DNA from: a virus
DNA: 59,532 bases
Direction: 5' to 3' (one strand)
Virus record (IMG/VR): IMGVR_UViG_3300029479_000004
Coordinates: 1-59,532 of that record
The notes below the pieces were generated by a model that was given only the letters and a program-made list of their open reading frames with translations, ran no database searches and had not been told where the DNA came from. The translations under genes and the position numbers were made by a program. This document shows, in pieces, positions 8,135 to 56,767 of the stretch. How positions within the stretch are numbered: the first letter of the stretch is position 1; the number at the start of each line of letters is the position of its first letter.

Positions 8135-8938
8135 ATGGCAGAAGTCAAGTGGATTAAAATCACAACAGATGTTTTTGATGATGAAAAGATTCTGCTGATT
8201 GAGAGTATGCCGAGTGCGGATAGCATCATTACGATTTGGTTCAAACTTCTTATTCTTGCCGGAAAACAGAATAACAACGGTGTGTTTATGATGAGCAACA
8301 AGTTACCGTTCACGGATGAAATGCTTGCCACCATTTTCCGCAGAGATTTGAACACGGTAAGGCTTGCACTTAAGACCTTTGAAGAATTTGGGATGATTGA
8401 GGTCGTTGACAATGTGATAACGATTCCGAATTGGAATAAGCATCAAACGCTTGACGCTTATGAGAAGAAAAAGGAACGTGACAGGCTTTATCAGCAGAAC
8501 CGGAGAAAGAAGCAGAAGAACCTAATTGAGCAAAAATCGCCCGATAAATCGTCTGACGTCGCTGTTTCAGATAAAGAAGAAGAAAAAGAAGAAGATAAAG
8601 AGAAAGAAAATATAAAAGAAAATTCGCTGTCGACCGATTCCGGAGATTTGTTTGATTTTGACGATGCATGGAAAAAGACTTTTAGTATATACCCCAAGAA
8701 AACAGCGTACAGTACCTCTAAAACGGCTTGGATGGATAAAGTGCTAGAAGTTATCGAAGAGAACCAACCGGACATTGCACGGCTGTTATACAAAGCCACA
8801 GAAGCATATTTGAGTGACTATCAAGAAAAGAATCCAGACGATACGGATTTTCGGTATATTCCAAAATATGTTGATTGGATAAAAAACGATTGCGATTATT
8901 GGTTGCAGATTGCGGAGAAACGAGGTGATTGTAGTTGA
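8135..8938 (+). CDS. phage replisome organizer (N-terminal domain family)
   Basis: MAEVKWIKITTDVFDDEKILLIESMP...IWFKLLILAGK matches the replisome-organizer N-terminal signature. Charged Lys/Glu linker. Confidence 0.8.
   Translation: MAEVKWIKITTDVFDDEKILLIESMPSADSIITIWFKLLILAGKQNNNGVFMMSNKLPFTDEMLATIFRRDLNTVRLALKTFEEFGMIEVVDNVITIPNWNKHQTLDAYEKKKERDRLYQQNRRKKQKNLIEQKSPDKSSDVAVSDKEEEKEEDKEKENIKENSLSTDSGDLFDFDDAWKKTFSIYPKKTAYSTSKTAWMDKVLEVIEENQPDIARLLYKATEAYLSDYQEKNPDDTDFRYIPKYVDWIKNDCDYWLQIAEKRGDCS
8547..8571. repeat. iteron-containing 25-mer inside the organizer gene, shared with 26536..26560
   Basis: AATCGTCTGACGTCGCTGTTTCAGA versus AATCGTCTGACGTCGCTTTTTCAGA (24/25). Followed by a purine-rich AT-rich tract. 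Confidence 0.6.
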
Positions 8939-15495: not shown

Positions 15496-16335
15496 ATGAA
15501 AAAGAAGTTAAAATGTGAGATTTATCGAGATTCTATGCAGAATTACAAAAAGTATGCGATCCCTCCTGCACAACTTATTATTGCAGACGTTCCGTATAAT
15601 GTCGGGAACAATTTCTACGGCAGTAACCCTATGTGGTATAACGGTGGCGATAACAAGAATGGAGAAAGCAAACTTGCGAAAAAGGCGGCTTTCAATTCGG
15701 ATTTTAACTTTAACTTGTATGAATACTTCCATTTTTGTTCAAAGATGTTGAAAAAAGAGGACACAAAGCCTATTGCAAGGGGCAGAAGCAGTAATAGCCC
15801 TTGTATGATTGTGTTTTGTGCATTTGAGCAGTTGTCAACATTGATTGCGTCGGCGAAAAAACATGGATTCGTTAATTACATACCGCTTGTATTCTGTAAA
15901 AATTACAGTCCACAGGTACTTAAAGCTAATATGCGTATCGTAGGTGCTACGGAATATGCACTCGTACTGTACCGAAATAAGTTACCGAAATTCAGAAACG
16001 GCTTGCAGATTGATGAAAACGGAAAGAATATCAGAGGTACAGGACACATGATTTTCAATTGGTTTACTTGGGAGAAAGACGGAAAAGATATACCGAAGAT
16101 TCATCCAACGCAAAAGCCGGTAGCAGTCCTTAAAAAGCTGATTGAGATTTTTACAGACGAGGGAGACGTTATTATTGACCCTTGTTGCGGTAGCGGTAGC
16201 ACGCTAAGAGCCGCCGCAGAGCTTGGCAGAAGTGCATACGGATTCGAGATTGACAGAAACTTTTACGAGCGCGCAAAGAATGAAATGCTTGTATTTGAAA
16301 ATGATGAGCAAATGGATTTATCAGATTATATTTAA
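15496..16335 (+). CDS. beta-class DNA methyltransferase (N6-adenine/N4-cytosine type), orphan
   Basis: Motif IV-like IIADVPYN precedes motif I DPCCGSGST. PTQKPV segment present. No nearby restriction gene. Confidence 0.75.
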   Translation: MKKKLKCEIYRDSMQNYKKYAIPPAQLIIADVPYNVGNNFYGSNPMWYNGGDNKNGESKLAKKAAFNSDFNFNLYEYFHFCSKMLKKEDTKPIARGRSSNSPCMIVFCAFEQLSTLIASAKKHGFVNYIPLVFCKNYSPQVLKANMRIVGATEYALVLYRNKLPKFRNGLQIDENGKNIRGTGHMIFNWFTWEKDGKDIPKIHPTQKPVAVLKKLIEIFTDEGDVIIDPCCGSGSTLRAAAELGRSAYGFEIDRNFYERAKNEMLVFENDEQMDLSDYI

Positions 16336-16577
16336 TGGAGAAATGGCTTATGAAATTTACAAAATTCATTAAGCCAGAACTTGAACAAATCAAAGAAAAT
16401 GCCAATTTCACGGAAGAAGAGGAGAGAATTTTCTCTCTTCTCTGCCGTGGTTTTTCACAAAAGCAAATATCCACAAAAGAAAATCTATCACTAAGAACGA
16501 TAGAGTACAGAGTGAGAGATATAAAAGATAAAATAGAAAGAACGGGGGTATTTGATTGGATGAAAAAGAACTGTTGA
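16335..16577 (+). CDS. LuxR/sigma-70 region-4-like HTH regulator
   Basis: LTEEEERIFSLLCRGFSQKQISTKENLSLRTIEYRVRDIKDKI. Confidence 0.5.
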   Translation: MEKWLMKFTKFIKPELEQIKENANFTEEEERIFSLLCRGFSQKQISTKENLSLRTIEYRVRDIKDKIERTGVFDWMKKNC

Positions 16578-17752
16578 AATATGCCGTTGATAGTGGTATT
16601 CTCGACATAGCACTTGTGCAGAAACAAGTTACTATGCAAAAGAGAGAAAAATTACTCAACAAAAACCCTTATAAAATCTATCAAGGAAAGGATGAGAACT
16701 GGTACTCATATCTGCCGGATGAAGTAAAAGGCAGACGTAAAATCAAGGCAAAGCGCAGAGAAGCGGTCGAGCAGAAAATCATTGATTATTGGAAAGAGAG
16801 AGAAGATGACCCCACGATAGAGGAAATCTTCAACCGTTGGATTTCACAAAAGCTGGAACTTGAAGAAATCAGCAGGGCAACCTATGACAGATACCTAATG
16901 GATTTTCAAAGATACTTTGACGGTATCAAGGATAAGAAAATCAAAGGTGTAGACGAATGCGACCTTGAAACGTTTATACGAAATAGCATCCATGATTTCG
17001 ACATGACTTCCAAGGCGTTCTCAAACTTCCGAACGCTGATTTACGGAATCTTTAAGTATGCCAAACGGAAGAAGTATGTCAAGTTTTCCATTACATACAC
17101 GCTGAAAGACATGGATATATCGCCAAAAGCGTTTAAGCACGTAGTCCGAAAGGCAAAAGACCAAGTATATATGCCGGATGAAAAGGAACGCATGGAGATG
17201 TACCTTAGAAATCACTTAGATATCGTAAACCTTGGATTGCTATTTATGTTTAAGACAGGAGTCCGTGTCGGGGAATTGTCGGCATTAAAGCGGAAAGATG
17301 TTGAAAACTACACGGTTGCGATCAATTCTACAGAAACACGCTATCGTGATGATGATGGTTTTCACTATGAGGTCAAAGATTTTCCGAAATCAGAAGCCGG
17401 ATTGCGATTTGCCATATTGCCGGATAAGTACAAATGGATTCTTGATGAAGTACGAAAGAGAAATCCCTTCGGGCAATATCTATTTGAGAGAGACGGAGAA
17501 CGGTTGAAATCCTACAACTTTCGTGAACGTTTGCGGTATATCTGCGAACATGAATTGAGAATGAAAGTGAAATCTCCGCACAAAATCCGAAAGACATACG
17601 GAAGTATCTTGCTTGACGGAAAAGTGAAAGAGTCCACAATCCTTGATACCATGGGGCATACAGACATTAGTTGCACAAAAGATCATTATTATTTTGATCG
17701 TACCGGAATTGAGGAAAAGAGACAGGAACTTGACTTAATCGAAGCATTATGA
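16556..17752 (+). CDS. int: tyrosine recombinase (phage integrase family)
   Basis: Arg box GVRVGELSAL, HKIRKTYGS (HxxR) and MGHTDISCTKDHYY (catalytic Tyr region). TTG start after GGGGG. Confidence 0.85.
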   Translation: MDEKELLKYAVDSGILDIALVQKQVTMQKREKLLNKNPYKIYQGKDENWYSYLPDEVKGRRKIKAKRREAVEQKIIDYWKEREDDPTIEEIFNRWISQKLELEEISRATYDRYLMDFQRYFDGIKDKKIKGVDECDLETFIRNSIHDFDMTSKAFSNFRTLIYGIFKYAKRKKYVKFSITYTLKDMDISPKAFKHVVRKAKDQVYMPDEKERMEMYLRNHLDIVNLGLLFMFKTGVRVGELSALKRKDVENYTVAINSTETRYRDDDGFHYEVKDFPKSEAGLRFAILPDKYKWILDEVRKRNPFGQYLFERDGERLKSYNFRERLRYICEHELRMKVKSPHKIRKTYGSILLDGKVKESTILDTMGHTDISCTKDHYYFDRTGIEEKRQELDLIEAL

Positions 17753-17759
17753 GTCCCTA

Positions 17760-17920
17760 GTACTCAAAAGTACTCAAAGAAAAATTGAAAGAATGGCTAT
17801 TTTAAGCCATTTCAAGACAATTACTCTAGGGTTCGATTCCCGTACGGACTGTTTTAAAAGTCGCATAAACACTGTGTTTGCGGCGTCTTAAGAAAATTGG
17901 TACTCAAAATGGTACTCAAA
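17760..17920. other. putative attP: tRNA T-arm-like core flanked by four GTACTCAAA arm-type repeats
   Basis: GTACTCAAA at 17760, 17770, 17900 and 17912. GGGTTCGATTCCC at 17829..17841. Immediately downstream of int. Confidence 0.5.
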
Positions 17921-17986
17921 AACTGAACACAAAAGAAAGGAGTCTGCACAAGCGCTTAAGATTCTTTTCTATAAATGGTAGGCTTG

Positions 17987-18010
17987 GAACGCTTGGGGCG
18001 TTCTTTTTTT
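17987..18010 (+). terminator. rho-independent terminator
   Basis: GAACGC-TTGGG-GCGTTC followed by T7. Confidence 0.7.
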
Positions 18011-18087
18011 ATGCGGTTTTTCTGCTTATTTTTTGCGGAAGAACCGTATTTTTTTATGCAAAAATATAAGCATAGGAGGGATGCGGA

Positions 18088-18240
18088 ATGTTATTTACGG
18101 ATGAAATTCTTGAAAAAATTTTAACAAGAGAAGATGTGTCGAAGGTTCCGCTCGTGTATCAGTCAGCAATGATTCACGCAATCAAGGAAGTATTGGAGGA
18201 AGAGAATGTATCAGATGCAAAATCAGAATATGGCATTTAA
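18088..18240 (+). CDS. small hypothetical protein (50 aa)
   Basis: GGAGGG RBS 7 nt upstream. Overlaps the next ORF by 35 nt. Confidence 0.35.
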   Translation: MLFTDEILEKILTREDVSKVPLVYQSAMIHAIKEVLEEENVSDAKSEYGI

Positions 18241-18682
18241 CCCAAACCCAAGCTATGCCGCTTATCAATACAACCCAATGCAAAGGTTTCAACAACCAGA
18301 GCCACAGATTCCGCAGATGCAACCGCAGTTTCTTGGAATCCAAGGAAAAGTAGTGCAGTCGGAGTCAGCAATCATGGCAAATGATGTGCCTATGGATGGA
18401 AGTGTTGCGTTCTTCCCGATGCAGGACATGAGCGCAATCGTAGCGAAACAATGGGATGCCAATGGAACAATCAGAAAGACCGTTTACAAGCCTTTTAATG
18501 AGCAGATGGCAGATTCTTCAAGTGAAGATAAAAGAATCGAAATAGGGCTATCTGATGATGCGGCAAAGGCTATTACTGACAAATTGGATTGCTTGTTTGG
18601 AAAGATGGAAGAGTTGGAAGATAAGTTGTCTTCGCAAACGCAAAGAAAATCTTCACGAACACAAAAGGAGAGTGAGTCTTAA
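18206..18682 (+). CDS. Gln/Pro/Met-rich protein, unknown function
   Basis: Strong RBS GGAGGAAGAGA. N-terminus MYQMQNQNMAFNPNPSYAAYQYNPMQRFQQPEPQIPQMQPQ. Confidence 0.6.
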   Translation: MYQMQNQNMAFNPNPSYAAYQYNPMQRFQQPEPQIPQMQPQFLGIQGKVVQSESAIMANDVPMDGSVAFFPMQDMSAIVAKQWDANGTIRKTVYKPFNEQMADSSSEDKRIEIGLSDDAAKAITDKLDCLFGKMEELEDKLSSQTQRKSSRTQKESES

Positions 18683-18909
18683 TGAATCCTATGCAGATGT
18701 TACAGGGAATGAGAAACCCACAGCAGTTTTTACAACAAATGATGGGGAACAACAGCGTAATGAGCAACCCTATGGCGCGCAATGCTATGCAAATGGCACA
18801 GAAGGGAGATTCCAAAGGCATTGAGCAGATGGCTAGGAATTTGTGCAAAGAAAAGGGAATTGACGCAGATAAGGCTTTTGAGTCGTTTAAAAGCCAATTA
18901 GGAATGTGA
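18682..18909 (+). CDS. Met/Gln/Asn-rich small protein
   Basis: 75 aa, MNPMQMLQGMRNPQQFLQQMMGNNSVMSNPMARNAMQMAQ. Start overlaps the upstream stop. Confidence 0.55.
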   Translation: MNPMQMLQGMRNPQQFLQQMMGNNSVMSNPMARNAMQMAQKGDSKGIEQMARNLCKEKGIDADKAFESFKSQLGM

Positions 18910-18962
18910 TACTAATTCTTGCAAGATTATGTATATAAAAATGAATTATGGAGGTAAATTCT

Positions 18963-19724
18963 ATGTTTAACACAGGTAATTGTGCATCTGTTCCGCTTGT
19001 CGCAAACATTGACGGAAACGGAAATAACAACGGATGGGGCGCAGAAGGCTCATGGTTATGGTTCATCATCGTTATCTTTGCCATCTTTGGATGGGGTGGA
19101 TTCGGTAACGGATTCGGAGGAAACGGAATGAATGGTGGTGTCGGAAGCGAAATCCAGCGCGGATTTGACAACCAGGCAGTTGTGTCAAAACTTGACGGCA
19201 TTTCGAATGGTCTTTGTGACGGATTCTATGCAGTACAAAACGGCATGAACGGCATCAACACAAACATTTTGCAGACCGGATTCGGCATTCAGCAGGCTAT
19301 CAATGCTGATACAGTCGCTAATATGCAGAATACAAACGCATTACAGTCACAGCTTGCTAACTGTTGCTGCGAGACAAGAGAAGCTATCCAAGGCGTAAAC
19401 TACAACATGGCAACTAACACTTGCGCTTTGCAGAACACCATGAACAGCAACACGAGAGACATTATCGACAGTCAGAACGCAGGAACACGCGCTATTCTCG
19501 ATTATCTCTGCAATGAAAAGATTTCTAGCTTACAGGCAGAAAATAGCGACCTTCGCAGAGCGGCTTCACAGGATCGTCAGAGTGCATTGCTTACAACTCA
19601 GATGGCAGCTCAGACGCAGCAGATTATCAATGCAGTAAATCCGTCTGCTATCCCGGCATATGTCGTACCTAATCCAAATGCTTATGCATATGGATGTGGA
19701 TGCAATACAGGATGTGGCTGCTAA
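18963..19724 (+). CDS. Gly/Asn/Cys-rich membrane-anchored protein (YjcZ-like Gly-rich TM segment, GCGCNTGCGC tail)
   Basis: GGAGG RBS. GWGAEGSWLWFIIVIFAIFGWGGFGNGFGGNG, an internal CCC, and a C-terminal YGCGCNTGCGC. Confidence 0.6.
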   Translation: MFNTGNCASVPLVANIDGNGNNNGWGAEGSWLWFIIVIFAIFGWGGFGNGFGGNGMNGGVGSEIQRGFDNQAVVSKLDGISNGLCDGFYAVQNGMNGINTNILQTGFGIQQAINADTVANMQNTNALQSQLANCCCETREAIQGVNYNMATNTCALQNTMNSNTRDIIDSQNAGTRAILDYLCNEKISSLQAENSDLRRAASQDRQSALLTTQMAAQTQQIINAVNPSAIPAYVVPNPNAYAYGCGCNTGCGC

Positions 19725-19794
19725 AACTGAATAATTGAGTATCTTAATTGAGTTTAACTCGATCATGTCTGCTATGCAGTATTACTTACAATCA

Positions 19795-19825
19795 AAGGGC
19801 AGACTGTAATGTTTGCCCTTATTTT
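19795..19825 (+). terminator. hairpin terminator
   Basis: AAGGGCA...TGCCCTT followed by ATTTT. Confidence 0.5.
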
Positions 19826-19845
19826 GTGAAAGAGAGGTAAAAATA

Positions 19846-20265
19846 ATGGAAGTAACAGGAATTGCATTACAAGCCGTTGCTGCTGGAGAAGATGTTGCAT
19901 TCACAGAAACAGCAGTAAACGGAACAAAATGTATCGTACACAGACAGGGAAGTGGAATTATCAAGTTAAGAGGTATCACCAATCAGTGTAAGGCTAGATT
20001 TTTGGTATCGTATTCCGGCAACATTCAGATCCCGACAGGCGGCACAGTTGGAGAGATTTCTCTTGCAATCGCGGTTGATGGAGAGCCTTTGCAGTCAACA
20101 AAGATGATCGTAACCCCTGCGGCAGTTGAGAATTTCTTTAATGTATCAGCACAAGCATACGTTGATGTGCCTTGCGGTTGCTGCAGTACCGTAGCCGTGC
20201 AGAATACATCCACACAGGCTATCGAGGTTCAGAACAGTAATTTGATTGCAGTAAGGGAGGCTTGA
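19846..20265 (+). CDS. beta-rich protein resembling BclA C-terminal (TNF/C1q-like) exosporium domains
   Basis: 139 aa. The pattern and ending ...VQNTSTQAIEVQNSNLIAVREA recall the BclA-CTD architecture. Judged from memory, not searched. Confidence 0.4.
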   Translation: MEVTGIALQAVAAGEDVAFTETAVNGTKCIVHRQGSGIIKLRGITNQCKARFLVSYSGNIQIPTGGTVGEISLAIAVDGEPLQSTKMIVTPAAVENFFNVSAQAYVDVPCGCCSTVAVQNTSTQAIEVQNSNLIAVREA

Positions 20266-20269
20266 TATT

Positions 20270-20950
20270 ATGCATAAATTTGCGAAACAGATTATGGATT
20301 GCGTGAAAGCCCACGTTGATGGCATCGGAATCGAGAATTTTGAGGGTCAAAACCTTGATGATCTTAAGGACTGGACGGAGATTGCAAAGAACATCGTATG
20401 CTTTGACAAAGACTACAACATTGTTGAAGCCATGAAAAAGTCTGAAGATGAAGAAATTATGCGCATGGTGGAAGAATTTGGGGACTATCCGGAAAGAAGA
20501 TACTACAATGAGTACCGGTACTCAAACGGAAGATTCGCACCAAAAGGGCGTGGAACACGCAGAGGATATGTAGAACCTCCATATTACCATCAGATGCCGG
20601 AAGATTACCGAGAGTGGGAGAGCATGCCGGAATACGACCGAATGAGAGACCTTGACAGAATGAGTATGGGGAAGATGTATTATTCAGAGCCTATGAGCGG
20701 AAATAATGGCATGAGTACCGGTACTCACGATGCAAGAGAGGGCAGAGCCGGTATGAGCCGGAGAAGCTACATGGAGACAAAGGAAATGCATAACGGAAAT
20801 TCACCGGAAGATAAGGACGCAAAGATGAAAGAACTTGAAAAGTACATGAAATCTCTTTCGGAAGATGTGACTGAACTGTTTTCCGGTATGTCCCCAGAAG
20901 AGAAACAGTTGACCAAGACAAAGCTGACTACGCTTGTCACGAAAATGTAA
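20270..20950 (+). CDS. Tyr/Arg/Met/Glu-rich protein, unknown function
   Basis: Central segment RRYYNEYRYSNGRFAPKGRGTRRGYVEPPYYHQMPEDYREWESMPEYDRM. Confidence 0.55.
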   Translation: MHKFAKQIMDCVKAHVDGIGIENFEGQNLDDLKDWTEIAKNIVCFDKDYNIVEAMKKSEDEEIMRMVEEFGDYPERRYYNEYRYSNGRFAPKGRGTRRGYVEPPYYHQMPEDYREWESMPEYDRMRDLDRMSMGKMYYSEPMSGNNGMSTGTHDAREGRAGMSRRSYMETKEMHNGNSPEDKDAKMKELEKYMKSLSEDVTELFSGMSPEEKQLTKTKLTTLVTKM

Positions 20951-20953
20951 TAG

Positions 20954-20978
20954 AGAGGGCATTTTGCCCTCTTTGTTT
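20954..20978 (+). terminator. rho-independent terminator
   Basis: AGAGGGC-ATTTT-GCCCTCT followed by TTGTTT. Confidence 0.7.
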
Positions 20979-20991
20979 GCGAGGTGGTAAA

Positions 20992-21309
20992 TTGTTCACG
21001 ATAAACAATAAAGTTTGGAATTTGGTCAAAGTATCGCGTTACAGCGATATGCTACAGAGAAGTGACGGAAGCAGAACGGTAGGAATGACCGACAGGAACA
21101 CGAAAACGATATATCTTGCGGATGATCTACGCGGAAAATTCCTTGACCGTGTGTTATGCCACGAATTATGTCATGCGTTCTGTCTTTCGTATAATGTATA
21201 CATGGATATTGATACAGAGGAAATCATAGCAGACTTCTTGGCTACATACGGAAGAGAAGTATTTGAAATAGCAGACAGACTATTGATTGAACTTATGGAG
21301 GTTGCATAA
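20992..21309 (+). CDS. small HExxH zinc-metallopeptidase-like protein
   Basis: VLCHELCHAF motif. TTG start after GAGGTGG. Confidence 0.45.
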   Translation: MFTINNKVWNLVKVSRYSDMLQRSDGSRTVGMTDRNTKTIYLADDLRGKFLDRVLCHELCHAFCLSYNVYMDIDTEEIIADFLATYGREVFEIADRLLIELMEVA

Positions 21310-21467
21310 TGGATAAAATTTCAGAACTCTTACAGTATGTGCGCCGGACAAATCCGGAAATGACGAGAGAAAGGCTGATAGAAGAGTTGAGCAAAAGTGA
21401 TTATGCTGCGCGGTCTTTGATTTTTACGAAAGAAAATTTTTTCCGCGCCGCAAAAAATATTTCGTAA
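21309..21467 (+). CDS. small hypothetical protein (52 aa)
   Basis: TAATG overlap with the upstream gene. Read manually. Confidence 0.3.
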   Translation: MDKISELLQYVRRTNPEMTRERLIEELSKSDYAARSLIFTKENFFRAAKNIS

Positions 21468-21701: not shown

Positions 21702-21947
21702 TTACCACTTGTCAAGATAGTTTTTCCCGTCGTACCGGCTGTAAGTGTGTGTTATGTTTTCCGGTCTTTGCGTGATCTGCATCCAGTCACCGCCACGTTG
21801 GACGGTTATTTTGGTTTTTGCAGACTCCACCCATTCCACACCCTCGAACTTGGAATAGCCGCACATTTTGCCAAATATTTCCGGATAGCCAAGAGCAGAC
21901 ACCCGGCGCATGATTTCCCTTTTGCCGATATACTCATATTTCCCCAT
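21702..21947 (-). CDS. hypothetical protein
   Basis: 81 aa with RBS AAGGAGGTG. Confidence 0.55.
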   Translation of the reverse strand: MGKYEYIGKREIMRRVSALGYPEIFGKMCGYSKFEGVEWVESAKTKITVQRGGDWMQITQRPENITHTYSRYDGKNYLDKW

Positions 21948-22258
21948 CTTTCACACCTCCTTATATCGTGTTTATTTGTCAATGCGCGTTATATGTCCGC
22001 ATCCGGCTGAACGGTGTGCAATCTGTTTTTTGTTGGAGATGCACAAGCTCCAAAGTGCCGCAATAGTGACGGCTTGCGATCTTGCCGCCGCTCTTAATGA
22101 TAGAACGGTAGAAACGAGCTTTCCCGCGTGTCTTGCGTCTGCATTAAAGCAGATCAACCGCGATTATTTACGGCTGCGGCGCGCCGTGTGACGGCAATAT
22201 GCCGCCATATAACCCGATGCAGTCCCAATATATGACCATCGGTTAATAAATCCACGCC

Positions 22259-22275
22259 GCCGGAATCGAACCGGC
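22259..22275 (-). terminator. hairpin carrying the tRNA T-loop 11-mer GGTTCGATTCC
   Basis: Minus sense GCCGG-TTCGATT-CCGGC, about 55 nt downstream of the 22330 stop. Confidence 0.4.
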
Positions 22276-22329
22276 TCACAACGCCACCAGGCACGCGGAA
22301 AGGGGCGGAAGAGTACCGCCCTAAGTGCT

Positions 22330-22659
22330 TTATTTTGCTTTTTTAACCGATATAATACGATCATCGGTTTTATCCTTTGGCGTGCCGTTGTCGCTGATCT
22401 TAACAATAACTTTCTGTCCGTCTTTAAAATGCAAGTCGGTGTCCGTGTCGGACATTTCCCAGATGTTCCCGTCTGCGGTATAGATGTCAAAACCTTTCCC
22501 AGTCAGTCTTTCGCAGTCCTCGTAGGTATAGGTATAACTAAAATTCCGTACGGTTCCGCGCACTTTGTAGGTGCGCGCGGCCTTTGCTTCCGTTGTTGCT
22601 GGTGCAAGGTTTACAAGGGTAACTGCAGTTAATACAATAGCTAAAATTTTCTTTTTCAT
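22330..22659 (-). CDS. small secreted protein (signal peptide)
   Basis: MKKKILAIVLTAVTLVNLAPATTEAKA. GGAGGAAAACAGTC RBS before this ATG. Confidence 0.6.
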   Translation of the reverse strand: MKKKILAIVLTAVTLVNLAPATTEAKAARTYKVRGTVRNFSYTYTYEDCERLTGKGFDIYTADGNIWEMSDTDTDLHFKDGQKVIVKISDNGTPKDKTDDRIISVKKAK

Positions 22660-22745
22660 GACTGTTTTCCTCCGTTTTTTGTTTTTATGCACTCAAAATT
22701 GAGTAAAACCGCCGCCGGTAGTGATCCGGCGTGCATCCTCTGCGG

Positions 22746-22985
22746 TTATTTTAATTCAAAGGCATAATATAAAATTTCCCCGTTATCTCCCTTTACTGCC
22801 TTAACGGTGGTTAATTTTTCTAATGCTTGTGACATTGGGGAGCCATATGTTCCACGCTCCCAAAGCCTGGACTTTTCCGCCATATTCCAAAAGCAACCAA
22901 CTTCTATACCTGTTGCAAATCCTGAATACTTCGCAAATGTCTTTTTGATAAAATTTTCGCACCATTCAACCTTGATTTTTCTCAT
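22746..22985 (-). CDS. hypothetical protein
   Basis: 79 aa with RBS GGAGGAATAGG. Confidence 0.5.
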   Translation of the reverse strand: MRKIKVEWCENFIKKTFAKYSGFATGIEVGCFWNMAEKSRLWERGTYGSPMSQALEKLTTVKAVKGDNGEILYYAFELK

Positions 22986-23033
22986 TTTCCTATTCCTCCA
23001 CATTCTAAATTTTTCCGGTTATTCCGGTAAAAA

Positions 23034-23074
23034 GCAAGCCGGGGAATCGAACCCCGGAAAACGCCGCCGCTTGC
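23034..23074 (-). terminator. tRNA acceptor/T-arm-like minihelix terminator
   Basis: Minus sense GCAAG...CCGGGG-TTCGATT-CCCCGG-CTTGC followed by TTTTT. Abuts the stop at 23075. Confidence 0.55.
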
Positions 23075-23350
23075 CTAATCTGCTAAAATCTGTCTAGCCG
23101 TGTTAAATACATACAATCTGTTGTGGCTGTGCCGCTTAAAATCTCCGTTTTCAGTAATCACGCGCCCGCTATTTGGGTATTTGAGGCTTACAACGGTTAA
23201 ATACTTGTTTAAAAGTTCATCCGGGCATTTTAGGCATTCTATAGCGTTTTCTATGGTGCTTTTCTTGCTATTGCAATAAATTCCCTCAATGCGTACCCCT
23301 TTTTCTTTTTCCAGCTTGTCAAACTCTTTCAACAATTCTGCTTTTGTCAT
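23075..23350 (-). CDS. hypothetical protein
   Basis: Starts MTKAELLKEFDKLEKEKG with AAGGATGG 8 nt upstream. Confidence 0.5.
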   Translation of the reverse strand: MTKAELLKEFDKLEKEKGVRIEGIYCNSKKSTIENAIECLKCPDELLNKYLTVVSLKYPNSGRVITENGDFKRHSHNRLYVFNTARQILAD

Positions 23351-23369
23351 ATAATCAACCATCCTTTCA

Positions 23370-23516
23370 TTATTCAAAAATGAACCCGTAGCCGCTAGTC
23401 TGTGCGGCTCTCTGAAATTCTTCTTTTCCGTACTTTTGATACATCTTTTCAAGGTTCGCGGAAATGTCAAACCCTGCAAGTTTTAACTCAAACAGTATTT
23501 GTATTTTGTCGTCCAT
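23370..23516 (-). CDS. small hypothetical protein (48 aa)
   Basis: Read manually; RBS AAAGGGAAAAC. Confidence 0.35.
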   Translation of the reverse strand: MDDKIQILFELKLAGFDISANLEKMYQKYGKEEFQRAAQTSGYGFIFE

Positions 23517-23593
23517 GTTTTCCCTTTCTGGTCTGCCATCATCAGAGCCGGGAGACCATCCCGCGGCTGACGCTCCAGATCGGAGCGTTTCGG

Positions 23594-23731
23594 CTAATCA
23601 AGAAATTTTTCAATTTCTTCATCCGTCATATTTTCAACTTCCTTTCGTGCCGGTATTGGGTTCATTTCCATTTCCCCGACTAAATAAGCAAATGCAATGC
23701 TGGAAAGCATTGTTCTTTCTTCCCTGCTCAT
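23594..23731 (-). CDS. small hypothetical protein (45 aa)
   Basis: ATGA coupling to the upstream ORF. Read manually. Confidence 0.35.
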   Translation of the reverse strand: MSREERTMLSSIAFAYLVGEMEMNPIPARKEVENMTDEEIEKFLD

Positions 23732-23904
23732 GCGTCTTCCTCCTCAACATATTTTTTAAGATCGCTTTCTGTTAAATGATCAGCTACTAAATTGTGATCC
23801 TGATTGTATAACTCATATTCATTTTCAACGGTTCCGAAAAAACCGTCGAACTGGTTGCATACGTGATAACCAGCTTTTTCTAATTTCTTAATAATTTCGT
23901 TCAT
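23728..23904 (-). CDS. small acidic protein (58 aa)
   Basis: GGAGGAAACGGAA RBS before MNEIIKKLEKAGY. Confidence 0.5.
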   Translation of the reverse strand: MNEIIKKLEKAGYHVCNQFDGFFGTVENEYELYNQDHNLVADHLTESDLKKYVEEEDA

Positions 23905-23955
23905 TTCCGTTTCCTCCGTTTCCTGTGCTTCATTTGATACTTGTATTATACAGAA

Positions 23956-24076
23956 ATTAAGCACTAAAGTATATAGGCAAAACATACAAAATTAAGCACT
24001 AATATTATATTAGAAATTGTACATTATTATTAAGCACTAATTAAGTATTGACAATTAAGCACTAACTATATATAAT
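23956..24076. promoter_or_regulatory. divergent control region: four ATTAAGCACTAA operator repeats plus a consensus promoter (TTGACA-17-TATAAT)
   Basis: Repeats at 23956, 23991, 24029 and 24054. -35 at 24048..24053 and -10 at 24071..24076. A repeat fills the spacer. Confidence 0.7.
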
Positions 24077-24104
24077 GTAAGAAAAAATACGGAGGTGCAG
24101 AAAG

Positions 24105-24296
24105 ATGGACGAAAACACAAAAGCAGAAAAGAACAGGCAAGCGGTAAAGAAATGCATGAGTAATAAAGATAGAATAAACATTATATTACCGCTTGGAACA
24201 ATAGAAAGAATCAACTCATACGGATTAAAAACAAGCGCATTTGCTAGAGAATTGATTCTTGCAGAACTCGATAAAATGGATAGAATGAAAAAATAA
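24105..24296 (+). CDS. ribbon-helix-helix (CopG/Arc-like) regulator
   Basis: 63 aa. RINIILPLGTIERIN...SAFARELILAEL fits a beta-strand plus two helices. Confidence 0.6.
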   Translation: MDENTKAEKNRQAVKKCMSNKDRINIILPLGTIERINSYGLKTSAFARELILAELDKMDRMKK

Positions 24297-24299
24297 TGA

Positions 24300-24351
24300 A
24301 TTAAGCACTAATTAAGTATTGACAATTAAGCACTAACTATATATAATGTAA
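24300..24351 (+). promoter_or_regulatory. exact 52-bp duplicate of the promoter/operator block 24029..24080
   Basis: Identical 52 nt including two ATTAAGCACTAA repeats. -35 at 24319..24324 and -10 at 24342..24347. Confidence 0.75.
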
Positions 24352-24390: not shown

Positions 24391-24771
24391 ATGATTAAAT
24401 GGAAAGCAACAAGCGTGAACGGACTTGTGGAATATGAGCAGGAAGCGGAAAGCTTCAAGGAGCTTTTTGATGAACTGGACGAAAGGGGAATAATTAGCGA
24501 TCCAGATTTTCCACTTTATGATACGGCACTCTTGGAAAAATACGGGAAATCATTTGATGATGCCGATTTTAAAGATGAGAGCGGCGAACTTGATTATGGG
24601 AAAGTTGATAATTTCTTAGATGGAAAAGAGTTATCCGATAAGGAATTATACGAATTAATATGCTCCCGGAATGGAGAAGCATATTATCAAAAATTTATGA
24701 GAGAAACCGAAAACGGCATCGTTGAAATCGGGGAATCAGATTTTGATAAAACCGGCAAATACAAATATTAA
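24391..24771 (+). CDS. highly acidic small protein, unknown function
   Basis: 126 aa rich in Asp/Glu. Driven by the duplicated promoter. Confidence 0.55.
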   Translation: MIKWKATSVNGLVEYEQEAESFKELFDELDERGIISDPDFPLYDTALLEKYGKSFDDADFKDESGELDYGKVDNFLDGKELSDKELYELICSRNGEAYYQKFMRETENGIVEIGESDFDKTGKYKY

Positions 24772-29094: not shown

Positions 29095-29165
29095 TGGGCT
29101 ATCGCCAAGCGGTAAGGCACAGGATTTTGATTCCTGCATTCCGGGTTCGAATCCCGGTAGCCTAA
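29095..29165 (+). tRNA. tRNA-Gln (anticodon UUG)
   Basis: Full cloverleaf: U1-A72, anticodon loop TTTTGAT, T-arm CCGGG-TTCGAAT-CCCGG. Resembles bacterial tRNA-Gln as recalled from memory. Confidence 0.9.
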
Positions 29166-29392: not shown

Positions 29393-29464
29393 GGGGATTT
29401 AATTCAGTGGTAGAAGACACGGCTTATATCCGGGTTGTCGCGGGTTCGATTCCTGCAATCCCAA
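29393..29464 (+). tRNA. tRNA-Ile-like (anticodon UAU)
   Basis: Cloverleaf with loop CTTATAT and T-arm GCGGG-TTCGATT-CCTGC. Mismatches at 1-72, 10-25 and 28-42 lower the score. Confidence 0.55.
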
Positions 29465-29547
29465 CGATAGGTCTTGCGTATTCTTTAACAAGAGTATGCG
29501 AAGTGGATTATAAAAGAAACGCACAACAAACAGGCTGCGAGTAGGAA

Positions 29548-50660: not shown

Positions 50661-52878
50661 CAATTTGAAAGAAAAGTATTGGGATTCCGCGACAGATAAG
50701 CAGATGGTCATATCTGTTGTTGGAACGAACCAGAAAATAGACAATTCGATGCTTGAAATCGGTACGTTTTCGCTTGAAGAAAGTCTTTGTTCGGAGTCTG
50801 AATTAAAGTTTGGAGCGTGCGAAGCGAATTGTGTAAAATTCACGGCAAGAAACACCGCAGGAAACATTATCGGAAAGACAATCTCTATTGAAGAAACGAT
50901 TGACGGAGATAGCCAAAATCCGATGCCATACGGAATTTTTAAGGTGGCATCCGATGTTCCTACGGCTGACCGGACAAAACGGCAGATTACGGCATATGAC
51001 GCTATGTACGACATTATCAATACGGATGTAAAGGCTTGGTATGCAGGACTTAGCTTTCCAATGACGCTTAAGCAGTTCCGCGATAGCTTCTTTGCACATC
51101 TTGGAATTGCGCAAGTTGAAACAAGCCTTGTCAATGATTCCATGACGGTAAATAAGACGATTGTAGCCACACAGACGGACGATTCAAGTGCGGTCACAGA
51201 AGAGTCCTCTATCAGTGGAAAAACCGTTGTAACGGCAATCTGTGAGATTAACGGATGCTTTGGCAATATCAACCGGAATGGCAAGTTTGAGTATGTCTTT
51301 CTTAAAGCAATCACAAGTGCGCTTTATCCGGCAGACAATTTATTTCCGTCAGACAATTTATTTCCGTCTGATGCAAACACGGAGTCCATGACCGGACACT
51401 ATATCACGTTTGATTATGAGGACTTCCAAAGTAAGGCAATCACGCAGCTAGAAATCAAGACAAACGAAGATAATGCCGGTGCTATTGTTGGAACTGCCGG
51501 GAACAACTATTCGATTACAGGAAACTTTCTTGTATCAGATAAGACCGGAGCGGAGCTGGAGCAGATTGCAAATAACCTATTGCCGATTATGAAACAGGCG
51601 GTATACACACCGATTAAAAGTTGCACTTGTGTCGGAAATCCATGTCTGACACTTGGCGAACCCATCCGGTTCAATACCACAAGAGAAATTGTTGAAACGT
51701 ATCTATTGCAACGTACCCTAACCGGTGTGCAGAGCAAGAGAGATTCAATCTCGGCACAGGGTACGCAGACACACTCTGCAAAGGTTAATTCGATCAGAGA
51801 CACGATTGAAAGTGTGGAAAGGCGTACCGGAAAGTTAGAGAGGAACGCAGACCATCTTCAATCCACGTATGAAGATTTAGAGGAACAGACAAATACCAAG
51901 TTTGAGCAGACCACAAAAAGCATTGTCGCAGAAGTCAATCGTGCACAAAAGGCAGAAGGTGCATTGGACGCATCCTTGGAATTGAAGTTGGGCAGAGATG
52001 AGAACGACCAAGTTGTTTCTATGATTAATGCCAGTGCCGACCAAATTGTGCTACGAGGAAACAGATTGATTGTAGAATGTAACAACTTTGAACTGGACGG
52101 TAGCGGACGAGTACATATAATAGAATCTCTGCTTTTTGACAGCGGTGAGGTATCTGGTGTAGAGATATTAGGACATGATGGAAGAAATAATGCATTATTG
52201 CAGAATGTTAAGTTGGACTTGTCATCTGTTACTGACGCAAACGGGGAAAACTTGGCGACAGAAAGTTATGTTGACAATTCGCTGAGCGACTACGCAACCA
52301 AAAGCGAATTGCCAAGTGGGTATTTTACAGATGTAAAATATACACTGAATGATGGGTCTACGACCAAGTATTCGCCAAGACACTTTAATAAAATGTCTGA
52401 TTTCGGTTCAAGGGAAAGTACCTTAGATATCGAGGGTCTTTTGATTTCTATTCCGAGTTCCGACAAAAGATTGAAAAATAATATACAATCATTAAGGGAT
52501 ATTAAAAGCGTGTATATGGCAATGTGCCCGGTTGAATACACATGGAAATCCGGATACATCACGCAGCACAAAGGCTTGCAGTTTGGTTTAATTGCGCAGG
52601 ATTTAGAGAAGATTTTGCAGGATGCTGGATTGTCCGATAGCGGACTTGTACTAAAAGAAGATGCCGAAGAGGATGAAAAAGCAATTCACGGAGATTCAAA
52701 GACATGGAAAATCGACAAGGAAAATCTCCATGCAATGCACATTCAGATGATTCAAAATCAGCAAAAGGAAATCGAAGAGTTAAAGCGAGAAAACAAAAAT
52801 TTGAGTGAACAGATGAAAGACTTTGAACAACGATTATCCGTGTTAGAAAGGAGTGTGAGCCATGCAGAAAATATATAG
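50650..52878 (+). CDS. tail tip/tail-associated protein with C-terminal intramolecular chaperone (peptidase S74-like) domain
   Basis: C-terminal SSDKRLKNNIQSL...PVEYTWK...QFGLIAQDLEKIL... followed by a coiled-coil. Confidence 0.65.
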   Translation: MINSNLKEKYWDSATDKQMVISVVGTNQKIDNSMLEIGTFSLEESLCSESELKFGACEANCVKFTARNTAGNIIGKTISIEETIDGDSQNPMPYGIFKVASDVPTADRTKRQITAYDAMYDIINTDVKAWYAGLSFPMTLKQFRDSFFAHLGIAQVETSLVNDSMTVNKTIVATQTDDSSAVTEESSISGKTVVTAICEINGCFGNINRNGKFEYVFLKAITSALYPADNLFPSDNLFPSDANTESMTGHYITFDYEDFQSKAITQLEIKTNEDNAGAIVGTAGNNYSITGNFLVSDKTGAELEQIANNLLPIMKQAVYTPIKSCTCVGNPCLTLGEPIRFNTTREIVETYLLQRTLTGVQSKRDSISAQGTQTHSAKVNSIRDTIESVERRTGKLERNADHLQSTYEDLEEQTNTKFEQTTKSIVAEVNRAQKAEGALDASLELKLGRDENDQVVSMINASADQIVLRGNRLIVECNNFELDGSGRVHIIESLLFDSGEVSGVEILGHDGRNNALLQNVKLDLSSVTDANGENLATESYVDNSLSDYATKSELPSGYFTDVKYTLNDGSTTKYSPRHFNKMSDFGSRESTLDIEGLLISIPSSDKRLKNNIQSLRDIKSVYMAMCPVEYTWKSGYITQHKGLQFGLIAQDLEKILQDAGLSDSGLVLKEDAEEDEKAIHGDSKTWKIDKENLHAMHIQMIQNQQKEIEELKRENKNLSEQMKDFEQRLSVLERSVSHAENI

Positions 52879-53590
52879 CCGCATCAATTGGGAGAATCTT
52901 CCCAGCGAAAAAACAGCGGTAAATGAATCTAATCTTAACAAGATGGACTTGGCAGTTGACAATCTGGATGATCGTATAGTTGCTATGGACGCGGCAAAAG
53001 TCGATCTTGTCAAGGCGAATGAACTTGTAAAGGAAATCCTTTGGAATGAACCTATGGGAGTGCTGACGGTCGTTAAGATGAATGGTTCACGAGCCGTGAT
53101 TGATACCAAGTTGGAAAAGTTGGCGGTCAACTTCACATACAATCCGCAGACACAACAATTAGTAATCGCGCTTGACGATGGCACGGTGCAGAACGTGGAT
53201 TTATCATCCTTGATTACAGAGTATGAGTTCTTAGATTCTGATACGATTGCATTCGAGATTACGGGTGGCAAGGTCAAGGCTATCGTTAAGAATGGTTCCA
53301 TTACGGAAGATATGCTGCAGCCGAACTTCTTGGCAGATGTTAAAGTTGAAGCCGAAAAAGCGAAAGCATCAGCATCCGCTGCGGATGCGTCAGAAAAGGA
53401 ATCCACGGTACAAGCTAATCTATCCAAAGAGTATGCGGATAAGGCCAAGGAATACAGCGATAACATTGATAAAAAAGCTCATCTGGCAACATTTGATGTG
53501 AATGAGGACGGCGAGCTGATCTATACAGATAACACAGCGGATGTGTTTACCGTTGATAATGACGGAAACTTAAATTGGGAGGTGGCTTAG
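52862..53590 (+). CDS. tail fibre/baseplate-associated protein
   Basis: 242 aa. N-terminal MQKIYSRINWENLPSEKTAVNESNLNKMD, typical of Firmicute prophage fibre-associated proteins. Confidence 0.45.
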   Translation: MQKIYSRINWENLPSEKTAVNESNLNKMDLAVDNLDDRIVAMDAAKVDLVKANELVKEILWNEPMGVLTVVKMNGSRAVIDTKLEKLAVNFTYNPQTQQLVIALDDGTVQNVDLSSLITEYEFLDSDTIAFEITGGKVKAIVKNGSITEDMLQPNFLADVKVEAEKAKASASAADASEKESTVQANLSKEYADKAKEYSDNIDKKAHLATFDVNEDGELIYTDNTADVFTVDNDGNLNWEVA

Positions 53591-56004: not shown

Positions 56005-56334
56005 TTATTCCTCACTTAATAGGTTTATCAATTCAATAACGTGTTTCTTTTTAGCGTCTGATAAGTTGAAATATTTCTTTAATGAGCAGGTCAATTCTTC
56101 GTCCTTCATTAATTTTGCTGACATATTTGCATATTTTTCCAATCTGTCTTCTTTACCATTTACGAGATAGTCAAGAGAAACACCAAAATATTCAGCTATT
56201 GCATTTACTTTGTCCACATTTGGATGATCCAGCTTGCTCAAATATCCCTTTGCAAATCCGCAATACTCCTCTAATTGGTAGCTTTTTACACCGTTTTCAT
56301 CGCACAATTCTTTAACTCTTTCTTTTAATGTCAT
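56005..56334 (-). CDS. XRE-family HTH repressor (CI-like)
   Basis: MTLKERVKELCDENGVKSYQLEEYCGFAKGYLSKL...AIAEYFGVSLDYLV. Confidence 0.8.
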   Translation of the reverse strand: MTLKERVKELCDENGVKSYQLEEYCGFAKGYLSKLDHPNVDKVNAIAEYFGVSLDYLVNGKEDRLEKYANMSAKLMKDEELTCSLKKYFNLSDAKKKHVIELINLLSEE

Positions 56335-56357
56335 TTGATTTTCTCCACAAAATAAAA

Positions 56358-56550
56358 TTCTGAAAAAATCGCAAAAATAATTATTGACATTCTGAATATA
56401 TCGCGTATAATGTACTTAAAGGTTCTGAAAAAATCGCAACAAAATAGCGACATTCGCATGCCGTAATTAATTTCTATGATTTTTGCTCGCAACTCAAATT
56501 ATAGAATATTTTCAGAGAATAGTCAACATATATGTGCGATTTTTTCAGAA
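56358..56550. promoter_or_regulatory. immunity switch: three TTCTGAAAAAATCGCA operators plus apparently face-to-face promoters
   Basis: Operators at 56358..56373, 56423..56438 and, inverted, 56535..56550. Plus promoter TTGACA (56384)-16-TATAAT (56406). Minus promoter TTGACT (56526..56521)-17-TATAAT (56503..56498). Confidence 0.6.
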
Positions 56551-56578
56551 CTTAAAGAAAAGGAAGGGAGGTTTTAAC

Positions 56579-56767
56579 TTGTACGAAAAAATCAAACGGT
56601 TCAGTAAGGAAAAGGGAATTCCAATCAGAAAACTAGAAATGATGGCTAATATTTCGCAGGGCAGTATTTGCAAATGGGGAGAGATTAGCCCTTCGTTTGA
56701 CAAAGTTGTAAGGGTTTCCGAAATACTAGGAATTGATGTAGCCGAGTTAATTGATCGCAAAGAATAA
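56579..56767 (+). CDS. Cro-like XRE HTH protein
   Basis: TTG start 7 nt after GGGAGG. IRKLEMMANISQGSICKWGEISPSFDKVVRVSEILGIDVAELI. Confidence 0.7.
   Translation: MYEKIKRFSKEKGIPIRKLEMMANISQGSICKWGEISPSFDKVVRVSEILGIDVAELIDRKE

Follow-up and report, generated by a model that had tools for sequence, protein, structure and literature searches.

The stretch of DNA analysed here (hereafter the window) is 59,532 bp of viral sequence, IMG/VR record IMGVR_UViG_3300029479_000004, representing the 59.5 kb genome of a temperate tailed phage. The element of interest is a cassette of eight open reading frames (ORFs) that spans positions 18088–21467, all on the plus strand, and lies behind the integrase gene and the phage attachment site (attP). 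The cassette is one copy of a conserved, self-contained accessory module found in tailed phages of gut anaerobes. A previous reading, made from the nucleotide sequence alone, had proposed a spore-coat- and exosporium-like cassette through which the phage remodels the spore surface of its host; we tentatively propose that the module may instead build an accessory fibre.

Relatives of the cassette were collected by scanning one genome per species, which returned 152 relatives of c139, the 139-aa cassette protein. Eighty of these loci, together with four phage records, were compared with the window; counts given out of 85 loci comprise the window plus these 84. The eight ORFs, which are called identically by the gene callers used for public assemblies, are:

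18088–18240, plus strand: c50, 50 aa; small acidic helical protein, homologs in 7 loci, no family match
18206–18682, plus strand: c158, 158 aa; family in 68 loci by transitive clustering, weak match to phrog_21718
18682–18909, plus strand: c75, 75 aa; small helical Met/Gln/Asn-rich protein with NPxQ(M/F)LQQMM repeats
18963–19724, plus strand: c253, 253 aa from the start used by the gene callers (a start at 18948 gives 258 aa)
19846–20265, plus strand: c139, 139 aa; predicted stand-alone TNF/C1q-like jelly roll
20270–20950, plus strand: c226, 226 aa; family in 66 loci by transitive clustering; helical N-terminal domain, Tyr/Arg/Met/Gly-rich disordered centre, helical C-terminal domain
20977–21309, plus strand: c110, 110 aa; minimal gluzincin metallopeptidase with an HELCH motif
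21309–21467, plus strand: c52, 52 aa; small basic helical protein, homologs in 7 loci, no family match

The c253 gene adjoins the c139 gene in 80 of the 84 comparison loci. The c158, c253, c139 and c226 families are each present in 63–70 of the 85 loci with their order kept, and the other four ORFs are present in fewer. In full, the module runs from a small helix-turn-helix (HTH) gene, through (i) a papain-like 128-aa protein or c50, (ii) c158, (iii) c75 or an equivalent, (iv) c253, (v) c139 and (vi) c226, to (vii) c110 or an unrelated 108-aa protein. The position of c75 is kept in 53 loci, where it is filled by cluster 11 or cluster 5 (phrog_22984), while c50 is confined to the variant of the module seen in the window, in which c52 lies directly 3′ of c110. 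The adjacency of c253 and c139, and the kept order of c158 and c226 around them, point to proteins that work together.

Three genomic settings recur. In the first, the module lies beside the integrase gene, as in the window and in Dulem virus 39; in the second, it follows the endolysin gene, as in Butyrivibrio phage Ceridwen, Dulem virus 33 and many prophages; in the third, it is placed between the gene for a MuF-like head protein and the scaffold/major capsid genes, as in Dulem virus 35 and loci L008, L102, L154 and L157. In the crAss-like phage cr52_1 the module stands beside tail and virion genes, with a neighbour annotated as LysB/FtsL-like. The c253 and c158 proteins of Dulem virus 39 are only 33–34% identical to those of the window; that the module has nonetheless been kept beside the integrase gene indicates long-term retention, rather than transient cargo.

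A tblastn search of GenBank phages likewise found c253 and c139 side by side in many gut phages. The full module, including the TNF-like protein, is present in the Butyrivibrio fibrisolvens phage Ceridwen. True members of the c253 family (with the N-terminal segment, the CCC and the Cys tail described below) are encoded by the crAss-like phage cr52_1, by a plaque-isolated Bacteroides uniformis phage and by Clostridium perfringens phages. Companion genes recur there too: a Y/R/D-repeat protein, an analogue of c226, lies beside the c253 homolog in cr52_1 and in Bacteroides phage C3_41T2LP, a PolyVal-type HExxH peptidase is a further product of the B. uniformis phage, and genes resembling those for c158 and c75 are present in CPD1, the c75-like one sharing the repeat motif of the window's c75.

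The hosts of the module are mostly Clostridia. Bacteroides and Butyrivibrio, including B. fibrisolvens, are non-sporulating, and the occurrence of the module in Butyrivibrio phages, and of the c253 family in Bacteroides and crAss-like phages, argues against spore-surface conversion as a general function. A non-sporulating host lineage is thus found for relatives of the cassette, though not for the window's own host: Roseburia faecis prophages are among the close relatives of the window, and an R. faecis genome carries spo0A. Each of the 80 genomic loci has the look of a phage or a prophage, and none of them is a relative in a chromosomal sporulation locus, of the kind for which the earlier reading suggested looking.

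Close relatives of the window are very common in human-gut metagenomes, and the phage that carries the cassette ranks with the very common prophages of Roseburia in the human gut. One exact c253 sequence is present on 281 contigs, and one window protein is indexed in 516 blocks of the contig collection. A scan of IMG/VR returned only near-identical relatives, and so added no diversity. A literature search covering prophage-encoded BclA/exosporium proteins, TNF-like prophage proteins and phage fusogens found no description of the module, which brings together a TNF-like domain and a minigluzincin, both known folds, in a layout that matches none of the phage systems described so far.

Two side observations concern the wider family of loci. 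Firstly, HNH homing endonuclease genes (cluster 12) are repeatedly found within the module, between or next to the c253 and c139 genes (L006, 9428–10222; L135; L165; L170, 4122–4745). Secondly, in-frame TAG codons occur at conserved-Gln positions in c139 and c253 homologs (L122, 3191–3610; L124, 8001–8417; L169, 4707–5630) of Acutalibacteraceae-binned contigs and cr52_1, which indicates that the module is also carried by phages that apparently recode TAG.

Core proteins and their companions

The c253 family (phrog_16490, 1.2e-59) has a layout that is conserved throughout. Its N-terminus is charge-free and Gly/Asn-rich, and contains a 14-residue hydrophobic segment (WLWFIIVIFAIFGW; mean Kyte–Doolittle value of 2.05 over 15 residues) that is followed by a GWGGFGNGFGG stretch. 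The middle consists of ~165 residues of amphipathic helix, rich in N/Q/A/T and bearing an invariant CCC, and the C-terminus of PxPAYVVxNP followed by a Cys-rich tail (CGCNTGCGC; family form PxPAYVVxNP...CC...GCGC). The hydrophobic segment, GWGGFGG stretch, CCC helices and Cys tail are all retained across the whole family, and neither a signal peptide nor a lipobox is seen on inspection. An AlphaFold2 model, for which the input held near-identical homologs only, reached a pLDDT of 32.7 and is unusable. The sequence-only reading had likened c253 to YjcZ-type sporulation peptides. No NCBIfam or Pfam match supports this identity at E up to 1, and YjcZ proteins are tiny, whereas c253 is 253 aa long with a conserved helical domain of ~190 aa; the likeness is limited to the Gly-flanked hydrophobic segment.

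When the c253 family profile was compared with the Protein Data Bank (PDB), influenza HA2 alone was matched, weakly (E 1.6e-3), over the fusion-peptide and long-helix region. In this alignment the GWGGFG stretch and the N/Q-rich helices of c253 fall on the HA2 fusion peptide and long helix. However, c253 has no HR2, no C-terminal hydrophobic segment that could serve as an anchor, no sign of cleavage activation and no clean heptad, its hydrophobic periodicity being 3.6–3.67 and not 3.5. We consider the match a probable resemblance of outline, not homology, with a borderline score driven by composition; the "spike protein/glycoprotein" annotation used in crAss phages likely shares this origin. 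Beyond these weak HA2 matches, the PDB sequence and profile searches with c139, c253, c158 and the papain-like protein (cluster 4) gave nothing usable.

The second core protein, c139 (phrog_20016, 5.6e-67), could be modelled well: AlphaFold2, given a 129-sequence alignment, predicts a TNF/C1q jelly roll with a pLDDT of 93.1. A Foldseek search of the PDB with this model placed the C-terminal domain (CTD) of F-BclA first (9h38; E 5.8e-8, TM 0.72–0.76) and also returned ExsFA/BxpB (7r1m and 8d02; TM 0.74–0.77), EDA-A1, BclA-CTD (1wck), 4-1BBL and C1q, the exosporium proteins among these matches having E values of 6e-8 to 5e-6 and TM scores of 0.64–0.77. Among viral models (BFVD), the best matches are stand-alone gut-phage proteins of 130–142 aa, followed by the C1q heads of collagen-like fibres. 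The resemblance to BclA that the earlier reading had noticed is therefore real at the level of the predicted fold. It does not extend to membership of the sequence family: c139 has no match to Pfam BclA_C (PF18573) or C1q at E up to 1, and the c139 family profile found no BclA, ExsF or C1q among PDB sequences.

Like BclA-CTD, F-BclA-CTD and ExsFA, c139 is predicted to be an all-beta TNF-like jelly roll of near-equal size, and like ExsFA it stands alone. It differs from them in sequence (9–15% identity), in that its chain is a single 139-aa domain with neither a collagen-like GXX stalk nor an exosporium-targeting leader, and in that it is encoded in phage modules only, some of them in phages of non-sporulating hosts; its trimer is putative. 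The exosporium proteins match best because the fold is shared, and a spore function does not follow from this. The wider family, which forms 927 clusters at 50% identity, has the same build: the best 150 of the 927 representatives are all short (83–196 aa, mostly 130–160), stand-alone and without extensions. Within the family C48 is nearly invariant and C112–C113 are invariant, and by inspection c139 has no signal peptide or lipobox. One further candidate relative, crAss gp24, was rejected because hhalign found no similarity to c139.

The remaining large proteins are without known relatives. c158 combines a low-complexity N-terminus (Q/P/M-rich in the window copy, Y/Q/P-rich across the family), a conserved domain of ~55 aa (WVxGExxAKxYxVxPGxxVxLxDS...YxKSxDxxG) and a helical, charged C-terminal tail; profile and sequence searches found no PDB or Pfam relative of it, and no known relative of c75 or c226. 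The NPxQ(M/F)LQQMM motifs of c75 are reminiscent of Met-rich segments of the STI1/DP type, to which hydrophobic helices bind. Relatives of c226 carry YSR or DY(D/E)R repeats in the central disordered region.

Measured against the 71 other ORFs of the window, the extreme compositions remarked on in the earlier reading are borne out. c158 is enriched in Gln (3.3-fold), Pro (2.3-fold) and Met (2.3-fold); c75 in Met (5.2-fold) and Gln (3.6-fold), at 16% Met and 13% Gln; c253 in Asn (2.5-fold), Cys (2.5-fold) and Gly (1.9-fold), at 14% Asn, 4.3% Cys and 12% Gly; and c226 in Met (2.9-fold), Arg and Tyr (both 1.6-fold), its central 106 residues being 14% Arg and 12% Tyr. Lysine is scarce in c253 (0.8%, two residues) and in c139 (2.9%), against a background of 9%. 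These two proteins are rich in N/Q/A/T/G/V; the flanking proteins are of ordinary charged composition.

An HExxH mini-peptidase had been proposed just downstream of the second terminator, and this identification holds. c110 has invariant H62, E63, H66 and E82, that is, an HExxH motif with a downstream Glu, and matches phrog_1233 (2e-13). In a profile search of the PDB it found the minigluzincin MJ1213 (4qhj, E 5.2e-4) and IrrE (0.03), at borderline significance. It resembles the minigluzincins (projannalysin, selecase MJ1213) and IrrE/ImmA in its size of ~110 aa and in these invariant residues, but stays below the Pfam cut-offs for SprT-like, DUF6782 and M78, and it is replaced in many variants of the module by the unrelated 108-aa protein or by a PolyVal-type peptidase. 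Other variants encode the 128-aa papain-like protein (cluster 4), which has invariant Cys, His and Asp and no solved relative. Neither the papain-like nor the gluzincin proteins match known cell-wall hydrolase families.

Searched against Pfam, NCBIfam, PHROGs and PADLOC, the eight proteins matched only PHROGs of unknown function, the label that every PHROG family of the module carries, and, below threshold, the peptidase families. No spore-coat or exosporium family (CotF, CotG, CotH, CotY/ExsY and others) was matched by any cassette protein in Pfam, NCBIfam or PHROGs. Among the PADLOC defence profiles the sole match was a marginal one of c253 to the ZorA coiled coil (E 0.0035, 14 bits), with none for the other seven proteins. 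A CotH-like kinase considered elsewhere in the window (52862–53590, PHROG label "kinase") was dropped, as it has no CotH or other Pfam match.

Control elements and integration site

The cassette is accompanied by the following elements, genes and sites:

16335–16577, plus strand: stand-alone sigma-70 region-4/GerE(LuxR)-type HTH protein (cluster 7), 80 aa; Pfam GerE E 1.7e-5, 24.8 bits, above cut-off
16556–17752, plus strand: tyrosine integrase; Pfam Phage_integrase 1.9e-12, phrog_1 1.7e-29
17829–17852, plus strand: attP core; exact match to the last 24 nt of a host tRNA-Glu(CTC) gene
17986–18011, plus strand: intrinsic terminator; 8-bp stem (17986–18004) and T7, −11 kcal/mol, z −2.1
18034–18087, plus strand: conserved regulatory element; hairpin 18034–18048 and T7, extended −10, ribosome-binding site (RBS)
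19795–19827, plus strand: internal hairpin (19795–19820) with a T-rich tail, between c253 and c139; −21.1 kcal/mol, z −4.9
20952–20982, plus strand: terminator-like hairpin (20952–20974) with an interrupted T tract (TTTGTTTG); −19.2 kcal/mol, z −4.6

Terminators do bracket the unit, as had been read from the sequence: the stem at 17986–18004 with its T7 run and the hairpin at 20952–20974 are both real, the T tract of the second being interrupted. The hairpin with T7 at 18034–18048 and the hairpin at 19795–19820 are additional to that reading. In the prophage, the terminator at 17986–18011 insulates the cassette from the tRNA gene. At the other end, the window and no fewer than 16 other loci have a terminator within ~110 nt past the c226 stop codon.

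The regulatory element between the first terminator and c50 contains an extended −10 (TATGCAAAAAT, 18055–18065) and an RBS (GGAGGG, 18075–18080). Eight divergent upstream regions could be aligned in one block of ~35 nt only, and this block comprises the hairpin, the T7 run, ATGCnAAAATnTAAnCATA and the RBS; the sequence of the hairpin varies among the eight copies, but its pairing is kept. The motif TTTTATGCnAAAATnTAA occurs once in the window, and once per locus in 22 loci, nearly always just 5′ of the first genes of the module. The element fits the regular expression TRTGn-nAnnAT and corresponds to a Firmicute-type extended −10 (TRTGn then nAAAAT) without a −35, of the sigma-A type. The earlier reading had suggested looking for a sporulation-type promoter before 18088, and there is none: no sigma E, K, F or G consensus was found in window 17901–18090.

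A hairpin with a T-run lies 3′ of c253 in 25 of the 47 loci with a measurable spacer. That different sequences form it at the same position argues for a conserved attenuator, which probably sets c253 above c139 in stoichiometry.

A small HTH gene (66–112 aa) was found in 19 loci, nearly always at, or within a few genes 5′ of, the first genes of the module. Between this gene and the module lie the integrase gene and attP in the window, and the integrase gene in Dulem virus 39. The 80-aa HTH protein of the window is a candidate activator of the module. Its gene ends the early lytic operon, which hints, without showing it, that the module is switched on after induction.

The attP core, a T-arm-like sequence just 3′ of the integrase gene, could be placed with the help of a lysogen. 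On L174, a 479 kb metagenomic contig, the prophage is 100% identical to the window over the compared region. A tRNA-Glu(CTC) gene occupies L174 positions 1005–1078, and homology to the window begins at L174 position 1055, equivalent to window position 17829. Homology thus starts inside the tRNA gene, 24 nt before its end, and the attP core is therefore 17829–17852. The cassette starts 236 nt downstream of the core and becomes the first unit inside attL once the phage has integrated.

A variant prophage, L001, lies in a 2.06 Mb contig of an R. faecis metagenome-assembled genome. It is 96% identical, including across the start of the cassette, but is integrated at a tRNA-Thr(CGT) gene (8784–8856), with the cassette again first. 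The different tRNA sites of L001 and L174 imply that the integrase/attP segment was exchanged while the adjacent cassette was kept. Both junctions, together with the attP core, agree with the proposal that the cassette sits at the prophage end beside attP.

A possible accessory fibre and its alternatives

Our preferred, though tentative, explanation is that the module builds an accessory fibre that is made in the cytoplasm, exposed outside the cell, and probably virion-associated or lysis-released. c253 and c139, synthesized without secretion signals, would assemble into a fibre-like structure whose stalk or polymer, present in abundance, is c253 and whose head or cap is c139; the conserved cysteines may cross-link the two. 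The fibre would most likely be attached to virions or released with them. c75, a putative chaperone, and c158 may shield the hydrophobic segment of c253 and aid assembly, the Tyr/Arg-rich disordered region of c226 could act as scaffold or glue, and c110, like the papain-like protein of other variants, may process components. Transcription would start at the module's own extended −10 promoter, right behind the terminator, and would be switched on by the small sigma region-4/GerE-like protein.

Several lines of evidence are consistent with an accessory fibre. Firstly, in the viral structure library the TNF-like fold caps collagen-like and other fibres, which supports c139 as a head. Secondly, the low Lys content and N/Q/A/T/G-richness of c253 and c139 are the composition of exposed fibrous proteins, and the hairpin after c253 is the layout expected where a major subunit exceeds a minor one. 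Thirdly, support comes from the late and structural neighbourhoods of the module (in the capsid block, after the endolysin gene, beside the tail genes of cr52_1) and from the terminator and promoter that it has wherever it sits. Fourthly, the hosts are monoderm and diderm, sporulating and non-sporulating, which suggests a function of the phage itself, not of a host spore. An exposed-type composition without a secretion signal fits only virions or spore layers, and virions alone are common to all of these hosts, which argues for a virion-associated or lysis-released fibre. The want of any match to known defence systems beyond the marginal ZorA similarity was also counted for a fibre.

Fibres with TNF/C1q-like heads are known: the Sf6-type tail-needle knob sits on a P22 gp26-like coiled-coil needle, and PRD1 has the P5 spike. 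The proposed fibre would share with such structures a helical or trimeric stalk with a distal TNF-like domain, and the BFVD matches of c139 include the C1q heads of collagen-like Caudovirales and giant-virus proteins. It would differ in that stalk and head are separate polypeptides, in the hydrophobic N-terminal segment and Cys-rich tail of the stalk, and in belonging to an insulated unit with disordered helpers and peptidases.

A number of points weigh against a fibre. The hydrophobic segment of c253 is membrane-anchor-like, and suits a membrane protein better than a soluble fibre. The fibrous nature of c253 is read from its composition and its 3.6–3.67 periodicity, which would suit any amphipathic helix, and its model has a pLDDT of 33. 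In the crAss, Bacteroides and C. perfringens phages, the c253 homolog is followed by a small beta-rich protein that is unlike c139; these alternative partners have no Pfam match. A private, terminator-bracketed promoter is rare for structural genes and typical of morons. Most phages are without the module, which is thus dispensable for making a virion.

The possible, if doubtful, alternative is a moron, in which membrane-anchored c253 and a c139 trimer would form an envelope or surface complex that acts in superinfection exclusion or alters the surface of the lysogen. The bracket of promoter and terminator, as recognised from sequence, and the variable genomic position, with different insertion points in related genomes, together form the classical moron signature. 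In the window the module is the first unit inside attL, where two terminators insulate it from the tRNA gene; the hydrophobic segment is conserved throughout the c253 family; and a sigma-A-like extended −10 could work in a lysogen. On the other hand, the AAAAAT hexamer at −10 is weak and lacks a −35, and the dedicated small sigma-like gene upstream suggests expression that depends on induction. c139 has no export signal, the c253 anchor lacks a positively charged flank for orientation, and the module is present in plaque-isolated and crAss-like phages, where lysogenic conversion is unexpected. Six to eight genes, with disordered proteins and peptidases, also far exceed the needs of known exclusion proteins. 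Lambdoid morons such as HK97 gp15 share the promoter/terminator bracket, the varied positions and the dispensability for most phages, but they consist of one or two genes; the module has 6–8 co-adapted genes, is ancient and widely conserved, and has its own small sigma-like regulator gene.

A more unusual reading, which we regard as rather unlikely, is a new self-assembling apparatus common to tailed phages of Bacillota and Bacteroidota: either a virion appendage of a new kind that inserts into membranes, or a filament or matrix that lysis sets free. In the major subunit, a hydrophobic N-terminus resembling a fusion peptide would be joined to long helices and to disulfide- or metal-linking Cys clusters, and a jelly-roll protein would form the cap. 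Met-rich chaperones, Tyr/Arg-repeat scaffolds and peptidases would build the apparatus, and its own small sigma-like factor would activate it.

A role in lysis is improbable. Here, c253 would cross the membrane once, expose a large helical ectodomain that contains Cys, and work in the manner of a class III holin or i-spanin; c139 would be its partner or regulator, and the peptidases would attack envelope layers to let progeny out. The module lies directly 3′ of holin/endolysin genes in many loci, and the LysB/FtsL-like annotation of its cr52_1 neighbour points the same way; in most carriers, however, a canonical holin and endolysin are already present beside the module, and in the window and several other loci it is far from the late genes. 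No endolysin or holin was recognised among ~40 scanned ORFs of the window and in the Pfam tables for ~16.8–37 kb and for 46 kb through the window end to ~5 kb, which is not proof of absence but lends a lysis role a little weight; nor has the window a homolog of the SleB-type "cell wall hydrolase" of the early regions of Dulem virus 39 and Ceridwen. c253 shares with the Rz-type i-spanins a hydrophobic helix at the N-terminus, further long helices and conserved Cys; its gene has a small partner just 3′ of it and often lysis genes nearby. Yet spanin coiled coils are charged, and the c253 helices are nearly uncharged. The partner gene encodes a 139-aa jelly roll, whereas a two-component spanin of diderm hosts pairs its i-spanin with a lipobox-bearing o-spanin, and c139 has neither a signal peptide nor a lipobox. 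The carriers are mostly phages of monoderm Clostridia, which need no spanin; the peptidases match no known family of cell-wall hydrolases; and the module has four or more genes besides.

The spore-surface role, in which a sporulating lysogen would make the proteins in its mother cell and build them into the spore coat or exosporium, is very unlikely (at most a host-specific possibility), even though (i) the closest solved structures to c139 are exosporium proteins, (ii) c253 and c139 look extracellular without a secretion signal, as coat and exosporium proteins do, (iii) the Cys-rich, Tyr/Arg-repeat and Gln-rich proteins and the papain-like (transglutaminase-fold) enzyme recall cross-linked coat layers, (iv) the associated regulator is a stand-alone GerE-type HTH protein, and (v) most hosts are Clostridia, including an R. 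faecis with spo0A, since the distribution among non-sporulating hosts, the promoter type, the want of BclA_C, YjcZ and Cot matches in Pfam and NCBIfam, the short stand-alone build of c139 and the phage-only loci all stand against it, and Roseburia is itself described as non-spore-forming. The module is still best described by the fallback of the sequence-only reading, namely another self-assembling structure, whether extracellular or in the membrane.

Neighbouring features and wider meaning

Elsewhere, the window encodes a DnaB-type helicase, a replisome organiser, a DNA methylase, an antirepressor and a single-stranded DNA-binding protein in addition to the tyrosine integrase, and has a cI/cro-like divergent gene pair near 56.0–56.8 kb. 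Its virion genes include those for an SPP1-type portal, scaffold, capsid and a tail fibre with an S74 chaperone domain. Two phage tRNA genes, for tRNA-Gln(TTG) and tRNA-Ile(TAT), lie upstream of the terminase region at 29095–29165 and 29393–29465. On the minus strand at 23039–23057, the terminator scan flagged CCGGGGTTCGATTCCCCGG with a T-rich tail. ARAGORN calls no tRNA at this sequence, which resembles a tRNA T-arm and may be a piece of a tRNA or else a second att-like relic.

The cassette is adjoined by a minus-strand block (21702–23985). A 120-aa ORF in this block (22330–22692, minus strand) has a signal-peptide-like N-terminus (MKKKILAIVLTAVTLVNLAPATTEAKA...) and no family match, and is a more conventional candidate for a lysogen-expressed secreted protein. 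Facing the block, the region 23990–24350 contains two perfect sigma-70-type promoters (TTGACA, 17 nt, TATAAT), each inside ATTAAGCACTAA(T) repeats, upstream of a 63-aa ORF (~24106–24297) and of the ORF at 24391. The region has the appearance of another switch under operator control, distinct from the cI/cro-like pair (56005–56767).

A module of 6–8 genes that ranges from Lachnospiraceae siphophages to crAss-like phages, with its own promoter and regulator, represents a sizeable piece of unexplained phage biology. If its product acts in the envelope of the lysogen, this would make for a conversion or exclusion system of unusual complexity; if it is an exposed, TNF-headed fibre, it could govern adhesion, host range or particle stability in the gut.

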